Under the pieces are notes generated by a model, which searched no databases, was not told the origin of the DNA, and saw only the letters and a list, made by a program, of their open reading frames with translations. Position numbers and translations under genes: made by a program. This document shows positions 13,441 to 61,298 of a stretch of DNA of 64,000 bases, one piece after another. Positions within the stretch are counted from its first letter, which is position 1, and each line of letters opens with the position of its first letter. Source of the DNA: a virus; IMG/VR virus record IMGVR_UViG_3300032236_001530, positions 1 to 64,000 of that record. The stretch is one strand, 5' to 3'.

Positions 13441-14246
13441 GATACTTAAAAACATATAAAATATTTGAATCAACAATATCTAAAACAGAGTTGGTTAACA
13501 AAATTAGATACTATTCTAATTGGTTACATAACTATATGAAAGATGTTAATAAGTACACTACTAGTAATCTTAACTTTGGTTTTTCTTTCAATACTGAATT
13601 AGAGATAAACCAAATATTTAGTGTTACTAATGAATTAAATGACGATTCATCGGATGGTTTGATTACCGCTATCGCAAATGAGTTTATTACATGGTCTAAA
13701 TATTTCACAGAAAATAGATGGGGTTATAGAAAAGAAGATATTATCCGTAGAGGAATGTTTCATGAGTTATTACCTGAAAGTAATATCTACTTTTTTACAG
13801 ACTATGATAACTATACAGATGAATATAAGACAAAGAATAAATATGTTTTGTACACGCAAGAATTAAATCATGATTTATATGTTTATGTTGGTTTAACTAT
13901 TCAAAGATTAATTTCAGGAACTATTTGGGATATTCCTGGAAAGAAACAATTTACAGATATTGATAAAGATTTTATTTTAGATAGTTTAAGATCTGATTAT
14001 GATTTAGATGAAAGTTATATTCTAAAAGCATCTGCTATGATAGATTCTTATAAATTGATACAGAGAAAAGTATCACAAAACAGAGGAATATCTATTAGAT
14101 TACCTTTAATTGGCGAAAGATGGAAACATATTGTAATAGACAACAATTCAGATTTTATGTATAGACTACAATCTTATTTTAATGGTGCTATTTTAATACC
14201 ATCATACTATGATTATTATAAAATATATTTACCATTTTATAAATAA
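13437..14246 (+). CDS. N-tagged hypothetical protein
   Basis: MRYLKTYKIFES. Confidence 0.85.
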   Translation: MRYLKTYKIFESTISKTELVNKIRYYSNWLHNYMKDVNKYTTSNLNFGFSFNTELEINQIFSVTNELNDDSSDGLITAIANEFITWSKYFTENRWGYRKEDIIRRGMFHELLPESNIYFFTDYDNYTDEYKTKNKYVLYTQELNHDLYVYVGLTIQRLISGTIWDIPGKKQFTDIDKDFILDSLRSDYDLDESYILKASAMIDSYKLIQRKVSQNRGISIRLPLIGERWKHIVIDNNSDFMYRLQSYFNGAILIPSYYDYYKIYLPFYK

Positions 14247-59491: not shown

Positions 59492-59520
59492 AAAAAAGAC
59501 CAAGATAAATCTTGGTCTTA
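59492..59520 (-). terminator. Terminator closing the ncRNA cassette
   Basis: aagaccaagat-aa-atcttggtctt with U-tract on minus strand. Confidence 0.75.
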
Positions 59521-59529
59521 AAAATAAAA

Positions 59530-60445
59530 CGCTGAGATTACACGTTCAGTGTGGCATCTTTGACTGGATTATTGTTTCCCAGTTTTATCCACCATCTTTT
59601 GAATGGTATCACCACAGTGACGGTTAGTTTGACTAACCACTTCTTGAGTTACTGAATACTCTCCACTTACTCTGCTTACTCAACCCTCGCAGGCTGATTC
59701 GGGATTCGACCCCCTATAAGTTTTTCGATGAAATCACATCCGCCTTTCGAGCTTATGTGGCTATGGACATCCCATAACTAAGTAGTCACCTTTCTATCAG
59801 TAACTAGGTAACACTTTCGATTTAAGTTTTAATTTTTACGTCAAAAAGTAAATTTTAGTGCTTGTAGATTGTGTCGAAGTAGTGGTCACCTCTCAGCTCC
59901 CAAAGCTTTTGGCCTCAAGAATACTGGACTACTCCGTGTGATGCCTCCATCACAACTCTTTAAGATATCTTCACCACGATTCACCTTACGGCTCACCTAC
60001 ACCCTTGGTAGAGTGATTAGTGTTCATTAACAGCACCACCTGTACAATGAATTGTCTTTCGACTTTGAGACACCTCTCAAGTTGAAACTCGCGATGATAA
60101 TAACTGGTGGGTCACCATTTCTCGCAAAATTTCTACAGGTTATTCTTATTGCTCTTCCGAACTCAACTGAACAATCTACACTTGCCCAGTCACCAATCCA
60201 TTTCCCTACGGAGTTACCCTCAGTACTTCAGGATTAGTGATATCCTGCTTGCTTACTCGACCTTGGTTACCCAAGACGCAAACACAATTCGCAGTTGTGT
60301 TCACTTTATCCCCCTTTCAAGGTTTATTTAACGACTATAAGCGGCCGTTGTCTTCACATTAGCCGAAGCTAATGATTCAACATATCATTCAAGGATTAAT
60401 AGACCTCACTGTCTATCAACTTACGTCTCTTGTGAGAGAACCTTT
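59530..60445 (-). ncRNA. Large structured ncRNA, GOLLD-like (~900 nt)
   Basis: GC-richer, no credible ORF, many GNRA/UUCG hairpins, 10-bp long-range helix (59863-59872 with 60171-60180), downstream of tRNAs; family assignment from size, context and recalled motifs; boundaries approximate. Confidence 0.7.
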
Positions 60446-60447
60446 AA

Positions 60448-60460
60448 TTTCAAAGAACTT
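60448..60460 (-). promoter_or_regulatory. boxA-like antitermination element
   Basis: AAGTTCTTTGAAA, identical copy at 61095-61107. Confidence 0.6.
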
Positions 60461-60514
60461 TATTTATAGTTTTTATTTTTACTTTGTTTAGAAAAATAAA
60501 AAATATTTTTTCTG

Positions 60515-60586
<72 letters not shown>

Positions 60587-60594
60587 ATTTGTAG

Positions 60595-60754
60595 TAGCCC
60601 GTAGAGGATTCGAACACTCTGTTTTCTAACCGAAAAGTTAGACGTCCTAAACATCAGGTCACGACTTGAGAGGATTGGCACCTTCTCATAACCCACCTTG
60701 GAGTCGTTTTGTTGACCGTCTGTTTCTCTTGCGAGTCCAGTAGACGAACGGGCC
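60595..60754 (-). tRNA. tRNA-Glu-like gene with ~85-nt D-loop insert and 8-nt anticodon loop
   Basis: GGCCCGT/ACGGGCT+A; TTCGTCTACTGG…TTTAGGAC; TCTAA-CTTTTCGG-TTAGA; TTCGAATCCTCT. Confidence 0.75.
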
Positions 60755-60813
60755 AAATAATTACCTAACATTGAACTTTTTGCCATATAGGACTTAGTCA
60801 AGTTAGGATTTTG

Positions 60814-60887
60814 TAGCGTGTAGAGGATTCGAACCTCTGTTCTTCGGGCGAAAACCCGACCGTCCTGAGCCGCTAGACGAACACGCC
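60814..60887 (-). tRNA. tRNA-Glu-like gene with 8-nt anticodon loop
   Basis: GGCGTGT/ACACGCT+A; GTC-TAGCGGCTCAG-GAC; GTCGG-GTTTTCGC-CCGAA; AGAGG-TTCGAAT-CCTCT. Confidence 0.8.
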
Positions 60888-60904
60888 ATTTGTTTTTTGT
60901 TTCA

Positions 60905-61298
60905 CAAAGATAAGAAGAATTTTTTAATCTACCAAATCTTTTTTCAATTTTTTTTATCTCGATTTAGTTGTTTACCTCCTTTCTGCCTGTAATCGGGAGG
61001 ATTACTGTATAATCAGGCTATTAACTTCTAAACCGATTTTGTTTTACAAAGATAAGGAGACTTTTTCATTTCACCAAATCTTTTTTTATTTTTTTTTCAA
61101 AGAACTTATCAGACGTTTCTGATTTGTTTTACAAAGATAAGGACACTTTTTTAATCTACCAAATCTTTTTCAAAAAAAGGGTTATGATTTTATCCTTCGT
61201 GATGGGGAGCGCTTATCATAATTAAGTTTTGCGTATTATACCAACACCCTTTGTTTCAATTGTGAATACAAAGATAGTATATTATTTTTAATTACAAA
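60905..61298 (-). promoter_or_regulatory. Four tandem Bacteroidota consensus promoters
   Basis: TATCTTTG at 60905, 61047, 61132, 61269, each with TTTG 20, 20, 20 and 18 nt upstream. Confidence 0.85.
61095..61123 (-). promoter_or_regulatory. boxB-like hairpin followed by boxA-like element
   Basis: ATCAGA-AACG-TCTGAT immediately before AAGTTCTTTGAAA. Confidence 0.55.

Follow-up and report, generated by a model that had tools for sequence, protein, structure and literature searches.

What does a phage gain from two genes that are built like transfer RNA for glutamate (tRNA-Glu), both of which carry one additional nucleotide in the anticodon arm? The two genes, denoted W2 and W1, lie in a 64,000-nucleotide (nt) stretch of viral DNA (positions 1 to 64,000 of IMG/VR record IMGVR_UViG_3300032236_001530; hereafter, the window), which is part of a 155-kb phage contig with 31% G+C. 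A first-pass annotation had reported them as tRNA-Glu-like genes sharing this anomaly, and both of the arms that it quoted were located exactly, on the minus strand. The extra-nucleotide design is under selection. Our preferred reading, to which we assign a probability of about 45%, is that W1 and W2 are conserved tRNA-Glu paralogues whose products would mature into a non-decoding mimic, recognized through a Glu-type core and a loop that presents UUC followed by a purine.

Anatomy and covariation of the anticodon arm

W2 is a 74-nt gene at 60887-60814 (minus strand), which was detected by ARAGORN, by the Rfam tRNA model and by a family model termed R1, the last with 88.9 bits. Its acceptor stem (GGCGUGU/ACACGCU) contains a G1.U72 pair and is followed by the discriminator A; the D arm is of the Glu type, the variable region is 4 nt long, the T arm is normal, and CCA is not encoded. 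The cloverleaf was recognized by RF00005, the Rfam tRNA model, at 47.1 bits (threshold, 29) with a deletion placed in the loop, and ARAGORN returned 'tRNA-???' with the anticodon (tt), i.e., a 6-nt loop. The anticodon arm, GUCGG-G-UUUUCG-C-CCGAA, occupies 60860-60843 of the minus strand. It is composed of the stem strands GTCGG (60860-60856) and CCGAA (60847-60843), a closing pair between G60855 and C60848, and the hexaloop TTTTCG (60854-60849), with a G.A mismatch at 27-43.

The second gene, W1, spans 160 nt at 60754-60595 (minus strand) and was delineated by a manual parse together with a partial match to R1, which aligned to its 3' part at 44.8 bits. Its anticodon arm, UCUAA-C-UUUUCG-G-UUAGA (60642-60625, minus strand), consists of TCTAA (60642-60638), C60637, the hexaloop TTTTCG (60636-60631), G60630 and TTAGA (60629-60625), and is closed by the pair C60637-G60630. 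The acceptor stem is GGCCCGU/ACGGGCU with discriminator A, the D stem is of the Glu type and the T loop is normal, while the 5' strand of the T stem has 6 nt owing to a bulged U at 60616 (AGAGUG versus CCUCU). The length of the gene results from an expansion of approximately 87 nt in the D loop after G18 G19 N20 (about 60735-60649, minus strand), a site at which relatives also carry insertions. This expansion begins with a CUC-GCAA-GAG hairpin followed by AAAC, and a GNRA-like hairpin is common to W1, its orthologue G001b (CCC-GUAA-GGG) and W03_402c, in which it covaries. Neither the expansion nor the bulged U had appeared in the first-pass annotation. An intron was considered for the expansion and rejected, since it is located at 20/21, ranges from 15 to 121 nt in the relatives, has no match in Rfam and is too short for group I. 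Neither ARAGORN nor Rfam called W1, the latter because of the D-loop insertion, and hexaloop genes are undercounted in annotations because tRNA finders mislabel or miss them.

For 25 distinct anticodon arms, drawn from several phage lineages and from two bacterial phyla, we built an ungapped alignment and counted the pairs, using 500 shuffles as a control. The position closing the loop was pairable in 25 of 25 arms (C-G in 18, U-A in 5, G-C in 1 and U-G in 1, including 6 double changes). No other position of the helix pairs as well, as inner pairs tolerate U.U mismatches and mismatches at 27-43 also occur. The anticodon helix was 89% paired versus 55% in the shuffles, none of which (0/500) reached the observed value, and sliding the 3' strand of the helix gave a pairing of at most 45%. 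Compensation was also observed among orthologues: the C-G pair of W1 is U-A in G001b, and the G-C pair of W2 is C-G in W03_136b. This indicates that the apparent 8-nt loop is a hexaloop carried by a stem that is longer by one pair, because the end pair covaries throughout the 25 arms. The first-pass annotation had proposed this geometry from the differing loop ends of the two window copies, and the larger family bears it out.

The loop itself follows the pattern U-N-U-U-C-R, in which U35 and C36 never change, position 34 holds U in 23 arms and C in two (CUC, which is also Glu), position 33 varies between U, A and C, and nucleotide 38 is absent. Position 37 is always a purine, A in 12 arms and G in 13, and both window copies have G37. 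The 7-nt loop with U33 on a 5-bp stem, as in RF00005, was not found in the hexaloop genes. Two other geometries were rejected. A C(UUCG)G tetraloop does not fit, as UUCG is flanked by U and by G or C instead of C and G, and the loop reads UUUUCA in half of the family; nor does an extra U1-R6 pair that would leave a UUUC tetraloop, as the distant phage contig L175 has C...A at these positions.

A Glu-type core, GUCU...AGGAC with U11-A24, U13.G22, A46 and no nucleotide 47, was observed in W2, W1 and nearly all of the relatives, with a 4-nt variable region of GAAC or AAAC. The acceptor and anticodon stems drift by compensatory substitutions while this core stays. Among orthologues, D-loop insertions of 15-121 nt, all at one site after position 20, and T-stem bulges are gained and lost, and the hexaloop is constant. 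The site after position 20 points away from the body of an L-shaped tRNA. The identity set of the glutamyl-tRNA synthetase (GluRS) of E. coli comprises U11-A24, U13.G22..A46, the absence of nucleotide 47, and U34 U35 C36 A37 (PMC9976931).

These observations bear directly on the view that W1 and W2 are decaying tRNA-Glu pseudogenes created by slippage in a run of T. The change from TTT to TTTT is an easy slip, and Glu tRNA genes with a plain 8-nt loop and unpairable ends do occur elsewhere, namely, at L227:60-90 of a Flavobacterium sp. (CUUUUCAU) and at L297 (CUUUUCAC). The latter two look as one would expect after simple T-run slippage or a homopolymer error in assembly, in contrast to the closed hexaloop. 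Across the 25 distinct sequences of the hexaloop family, however, the cloverleaf has survived numerous compensatory changes and the Glu core and loop are invariant, and the two genes of the window sit behind four promoters, so that decay can hardly be the explanation. Chance or homopolymer error was rejected as well, as the longer arm occurs in 25 distinct sequences with an always pairable closing pair. Selection rather than decay, which the first-pass annotation had argued from the shared anomaly, is upheld by the unfailing retention of that pair, its compensatory changes and the invariant Glu core.

Occurrence beside canonical tRNA-Glu and the question of decoding

The same arm was sought in related phages and recurs both there and in some bacteria, which together gave the 25 distinct sequences. 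The window has relatives in the 'uncultured phage' genomes LR745206 (W01), LR756502 (W02) and LR756504 (W03), which are 630-640 kb long. Three hexaloop genes are located in LR745206, two identical copies of which flank tRNA-Met and the GOLLD RNA; LR756502 has two, and LR756504 has approximately ten, which form tandem pairs at five loci, none of them near a GOLLD RNA. Two more were found in an IMG/VR contig (G001), 14 nt and about 170 nt after GOLLD. The arm is also present in the more distant phage contigs L033, L037, L351, L356 and L175, the last of which has the loop CCCUCA and hence a CUC anticodon. A strict pattern search of IMG/VR gave the hexaloop in about ten contigs of at least five lineages. 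A scan of the same database anchored on the D arm only returned about 75 true Glu-type tRNAs, almost all of which have 7-nt YUUUCAN loops, usually UUUUCAU, CUUUCAC, CUUUCAA or UUUUCAA.

The related genomes hold 41-63 tRNA genes each, among which is a canonical tRNA-Glu with a 7-nt loop. In LR745206, the canonical genes are located at 365746, 365427 and 365267 (UUC) and at 365344 (CUC), and others were found at 14020 in G001, at 389355 in LR756502 and at 1876-1948 in L033. Since the canonical tRNA-Glu coexists in the relatives checked, the hexaloop form is an additional and rare species, and the recurrence of its conserved design beside a normal tRNA-Glu indicates that the hexaloop genes are probably not ordinary codon readers. 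CCA is encoded in the hexaloop genes of L033, L175, L356 and the bacterial genome G011, in the last of which the canonical tRNA-Glu encodes CCA too.

Relatives with a more strongly modified arm also exist. L127 shares its acceptor and bulged T stem with W01a, a hexaloop gene of LR745206, and lacks an anticodon loop. W1 combines a tRNA-Glu body, a D-loop insertion, a half-closed anticodon arm and adjacency to GOLLD, and W2 shares all of these except for the insertion. Next to relatives whose anticodon arm is closed or missing, W1 and W2 look like the least derived mimics, because both keep the Glu triplet in a half-closed arm. Apart from the Glu-derived genes, tRNA-shaped genes of a class II-like type, whose variable arm is long, were observed upstream of tRNA-Met and GOLLD at L001:2401-2488 (LR745206) and L078:237-323 (G001). 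Their anticodon arm is a closed hairpin of 8-9 bp capped by a tetraloop, and their stems covary between the two phages; they constitute a second family of anticodon-less tRNA mimics.

Outside phages, the hexaloop arm was found in several Pirellulales (Novipirellula, Mariniblastus and metagenome-assembled genomes) and in two Campylobacterales genomes. A canonical tRNA-Glu(UUC) accompanies it in four of the five bacterial genomes checked (G007, G008, G010 and G011); none was found in G009, which is an incomplete metagenome-assembled genome. The gene lies directly downstream of clpP1-clpP2 in two Pirellulales, at L345 (G007:C2:690352-702425) and L348 (G010), and adjoins leuA in two others. These shared neighborhoods indicate that the bacterial gene is chromosomal and vertically inherited among close relatives. 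A conserved protein neighbor as a clue to function was rejected, as clpP1P2 alone recurred, in two related Pirellulales; an order-wide bacterial trait was rejected likewise, as the pattern was present in 1/121 and 2/121 genomes sampled from the two orders.

Two further deviations from the ordinary tRNA-Glu arm were recorded in bacteria. A 16-gene tRNA array of Novipirellula (L336:2540-2630; G007:C1, about 2.425 Mb) includes a 91-nt 'tRNA-???', called with an anticodon of 2 nt (ct), which adjoins canonical Glu(UUC) and Glu(CUC) genes. In many bacteria of the Patescibacteria, the candidate phyla radiation (CPR), tRNA-Glu genes have a hairpin-forming insertion of approximately 31 nt in the anticodon loop just after UUUUUCA, near 37/38 (L205, L208, L219, L230, L241, L252 and about 25 more loci), which is too short by far to be a group I intron.

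Given this distribution, do the hexaloop RNAs decode at all? The first-pass annotation had suggested natural quadruplet (GAAR) decoders. Such +1 frameshift decoding would require the arm to open into a loop of 8 nt, in which UUUC reads GAAA (or GAAR). The arm is one nucleotide longer, as in the laboratory suppressors sufD and sufJ, and when the closing pair is read as 32-38, the loop supplies U33, UUUC and R37, with the variants giving AUUC and CCUC. An open loop is, however, difficult to reconcile with loop ends that are complementary in 25/25 arms through compensatory changes, and some members have A or C in place of U33. Codon context, examined in 171 long open reading frames (ORFs) of the 155-kb contig, also speaks against it: the base following 2113 in-frame GAA codons was A in 34.3% and G in 33.1%, which shows no avoidance and matches the base after AAA and CAA and the overall first-base frequencies. 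About 725 GAA-A and 700 GAA-G in-frame sites are thus undepleted, and an efficient quadruplet reader would hit about 1400 sites. Among 30 adjacent ORF pairs in the +1 register on the same contig, 29 have an ATG of their own no more than about 30 nt from the junction, and the remaining pair contains no GAR quadruplet in its 2-nt overlap. The elbow insertion of W1 would also be hard to accommodate in the ribosome. Quadruplet decoding is accordingly highly improbable, because a canonical tRNA-Glu coexists in the relatives checked, GAA-A and GAA-G are not avoided and no +1 target was found on the contig, and this proposal is not retained.

Decoding of ordinary GAA/GAG triplets deserves more weight, although we consider it doubtful. 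The hexaloop RNAs would then be working tRNAs whose altered arm confers resistance to a host nuclease or another factor directed at the anticodon loop of tRNA-Glu, or tunes decoding, and they would serve as a back-up Glu tRNA in infection. The Glu anticodon and the following purine are always kept, the cloverleaf of W2 is otherwise normal, and CCA is kept in several genomes that encode CCA. The mitochondrial tRNA-Thr1 of yeast reads triplets with an 8-nt loop (PMC3113583), and phage tRNAs have been proposed to evade anticodon nucleases via loop changes (PMC10264068). On the other side, the covarying Watson-Crick closing pair leaves six loop bases without a conserved U33, the family tolerates elbow insertions as long as 121 nt as well as T-stem bulges, and the phages already have a canonical tRNA-Glu. 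Moreover, we know of no bacterial nuclease specific for tRNA-Glu, which counts against a resistant decoder.

An RNA operon with GOLLD

W2 and W1 are placed at the head of a protein-free operon (59496-61298), which is defined by the promoters and the terminator that bracket the unit. Four tandem promoters of the Bacteroidota type (TTTG-N18-20-TAnnTTTG) were located by a pattern scan at 61298-61269, 61163-61132, 61078-61047 and 60936-60905, all on the minus strand. They represent 4 of the 20 matches to this pattern in the whole window, and the last one stops 18 nt short of W2. Ahead of the hexaloop homologues at L001, a similar TTTG...TAnnTTTG motif, also repeated, was seen by eye. Between the third and fourth promoters, at 60985-61035 (minus strand), an imperfect hairpin of approximately 32 nt (CCUGAUUAUACAGUAAUCC...GAUUACAGG) is followed by GGAGG. 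A canonical tRNA-Met (CAU) at 60586-60514 (minus strand; ARAGORN, and 62.9 bits with Rfam) starts 8 nt after W1. It is followed by a GOLLD RNA of approximately 820 nt at 60346-59529 (minus strand), the 5' limit of which is approximate. The 3' domain of GOLLD (59936-59529) scored 269.8 bits with RF02032 against a gathering threshold of 150 (E = 3e-77), and its 5' part is conserved to about 60346 with LR745206 and LR756502 (76-79% blastn identity over 60346-59532). A strong intrinsic terminator with a 10-bp stem and a T run was detected by a terminator scan at 59519-59496 (minus strand), 10 nt past the 3' end of GOLLD. Such an arrangement is in line with published reports, which place the GOLLD of phages and prophages close to tRNA islands and downstream of tRNA-Met, in some cases with tRNAs inside it (bioRxiv 10.1101/2024.12.08.627333, PMC12990946, PMC6582537). 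The promoters, together with the GluRS of the relatives being nearest to PDB 6brl, suggested a Bacteroidota host; 6brl is an entry that we take to be the GluRS of a Bacteroidota species.

The position of the genes raises the question of whether they merely punctuate the transcript, i.e., act in cis by recruiting RNase P and RNase Z to process the GOLLD operon, with a functionless RNA released in the manner of mascRNA. The latter is released from MALAT1 by RNase P. In LR745206, LR756502 and G001, a hexaloop gene lies 10-14 nt past the 3' end of GOLLD, and in the window W2 and W1 precede tRNA-Met and GOLLD, which fits such a role. mascRNA also provides a precedent for a tRNA-like RNA that originates in a long non-coding RNA (PMC9976931). 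For RNase P, however, the anticodon arm is dispensable, while conservation is highest in the hexaloop, its closing pair and the Glu core. In addition, LR756504 has its roughly ten copies with GOLLD not nearby, and GOLLD of the window ends at a terminator instead of a tRNA-like gene. Punctuation is thus an improbable account of the family.

Strong transcription would also suit decoys that absorb a host defense or toxin aimed at tRNA-Glu or at tRNA ends, such as an anticodon nuclease, a Cas13-type collateral RNase or a 3'-end-modifying enzyme. High expression is predicted from the four tandem promoters, the conserved tRNA body exposes a U-rich loop, and relatives without any anticodon exist. Nevertheless, a decoy used stoichiometrically would be poor against an enzyme that turns over, the strict UUC/CUC with its purine and the closing pair are more specific than a generic decoy needs, and copies are present in the chromosomes of bacteria. 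We regard decoys as quite unlikely, more so than triplet decoders.

Candidate partners and comparison with known systems

The non-decoding tRNA-Glu mimic, one of the options that the first-pass annotation had listed beside nuclease-resistant tRNAs and decoys, is favored because the closing pair covaries and the Glu core and triplet are kept beside a coexisting canonical tRNA-Glu. The same reading is supported by the D-loop insertions and T-stem bulges that come and go, the existence of closed-arm relatives and the encoding of CCA in some members, as well as by the lack of GAA-A/GAA-G avoidance and of a +1 target on the contig and by the promoters and terminator that bracket the unit. As a working scheme, the tandem promoters would drive a W2-W1-tRNA-Met-GOLLD transcript, from which RNase P and 3' processing would free the tRNA-shaped RNAs. 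Through the Glu core and the UUC-purine loop, the freed RNAs may then bind a tRNA-Glu-specific factor, the most likely partner being GluRS, which could even charge them. They would be poor substrates for EF-Tu and the ribosome, and the mimic would titrate, occupy or feed a tRNA-Glu-dependent step in infection. The effect of the hexaloop RNA may run through a synthetase.

Four of the related phages (LR745206, LR756502, LR756504 and G001) encode GluRS, and the first two encode GlnRS too. Together with the CCA encoded in L033, L175, L356 and G011, the phage GluRS is an indirect hint that the RNAs may be charged. The phage GluRS is an ordinary full-length enzyme of the bacterial type (TIGR00464; 409 bits to PDB 6brl). 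An unusual phage GluRS acting as an orthogonal partner was therefore rejected, as the enzyme is ordinary and is missing from the contig of the window and from G002-G006. LR745206 additionally encodes, besides the full-length GluRS and GlnRS, a 285-aa paralogue of the GluRS catalytic domain without the anticodon-binding domain (L054:901-1758, about 23.5-24.2 kb), which resembles GluQRS and falls below the GluQRS family cut-off.

Several observations weigh against the mimic. No GluRS is encoded on the window's own 155-kb contig. Among the enzymes that use Glu-tRNA, GluTR (PF05201) was absent from phages G000, G001 and W01-W03, and LanB (PF04738) was not found in the phages, the latter being of little weight since the control matched in no genome. 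Retention of the Glu anticodon and the purine is equally expected of a decoder, and the elbow and T stem of W2 are normal, so that entry into the ribosome is possible in principle. Both window copies have G37, while A37 is a determinant for E. coli GluRS, and G1.U72 and G2-C71 differ from the weak acceptor determinants of the E. coli system. Finally, the rare chromosomal copies in Pirellulales and Campylobacterales indicate that the design is specific to neither phages nor GOLLD. A variant that embraces these copies would be a separate Glu-tRNA-like pool kept off the ribosome, which is recognized by GluRS and perhaps charged (by the phage enzyme in the largest relatives) for a non-translational role, with the device adopted independently or by transfer in some Pirellulales and Campylobacterales. 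Possible roles are ones such as glutamate donation, control of GluRS or of stress signaling, or service as a cargo or adaptor of the GOLLD nanocage. We hold this variant to be about as unlikely as the decoys.

Non-canonical tRNAs and tRNA mimics as such are already known. Our survey of the literature on GOLLD and tRNA, on expanded, 8-nt and 6-nt anticodon loops and on tRNA-Glu with an extra nucleotide did not reveal the hexaloop family, and we found no published account of a conserved tRNA-Glu paralogue with paired 32/38 and a six-base loop beside the normal Glu tRNAs of giant phages and some bacteria. What the window adds is the least derived form with its Glu triplet, a quantified covariation of the closing pair, and rare copies in two bacterial phyla. 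The family lends itself, as a natural example, to tests of the influence of anticodon-loop size on charging, EF-Tu binding and decoding. The hexaloop RNAs also represent a defined RNA partner to be tested with GOLLD, the cage structure of which is already solved.

The closest known molecule is the canonical tRNA-Glu (UUC/CUC), which has the same 7-bp acceptor, GUCU...AGGAC D arm, 4-nt variable region, UUCGAAU T loop and UUC, and the backbone of the hexaloop genes is close to that of the canonical phage Glu tRNAs in IMG/VR. The difference lies in a 6-nt loop with a covarying pair instead of a 7-nt loop with unpaired 32/38, in G37 of the window copies, in an unfixed U33, and in the D-loop insertions and T-stem bulges. 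Laboratory +1 suppressors of the sufD, sufA6 and sufJ type likewise have one extra nucleotide in the anticodon arm, which is an easy product of slippage, whereas the hexaloop genes are natural, conserved and multi-copy, with paired loop ends and no adaptation of target or codon context. Yeast mitochondrial tRNA-Thr1(UAG) is a natural tRNA with an extra anticodon-arm nucleotide under selection (PMC3113583, PMC7609411). It is, however, the sole decoder of its codon family, while the hexaloop genes coexist with a canonical tRNA-Glu and absorb the extra nucleotide into a pair. An anticodon stem extended to 6 bp within an L-shaped tRNA is also found in tRNA-Pyl and in mammalian mitochondrial tRNA-Ser(UCN) (PMC7609411), but these keep a 7-nt loop and compensate with shorter connectors, in contrast to the six-base loop described here. 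The genomic setting is shared with the tRNAs linked to GOLLD, which is found in a tRNA island after tRNA-Met with odd or 'pseudo' tRNAs attached (bioRxiv 10.1101/2024.12.08.627333, PMC12990946, PMC6582537). Unlike those tRNAs, the Glu-derived hexaloop family, which is not described in these reports, also occurs without GOLLD, as in LR756504, L033, L037 and the bacteria.

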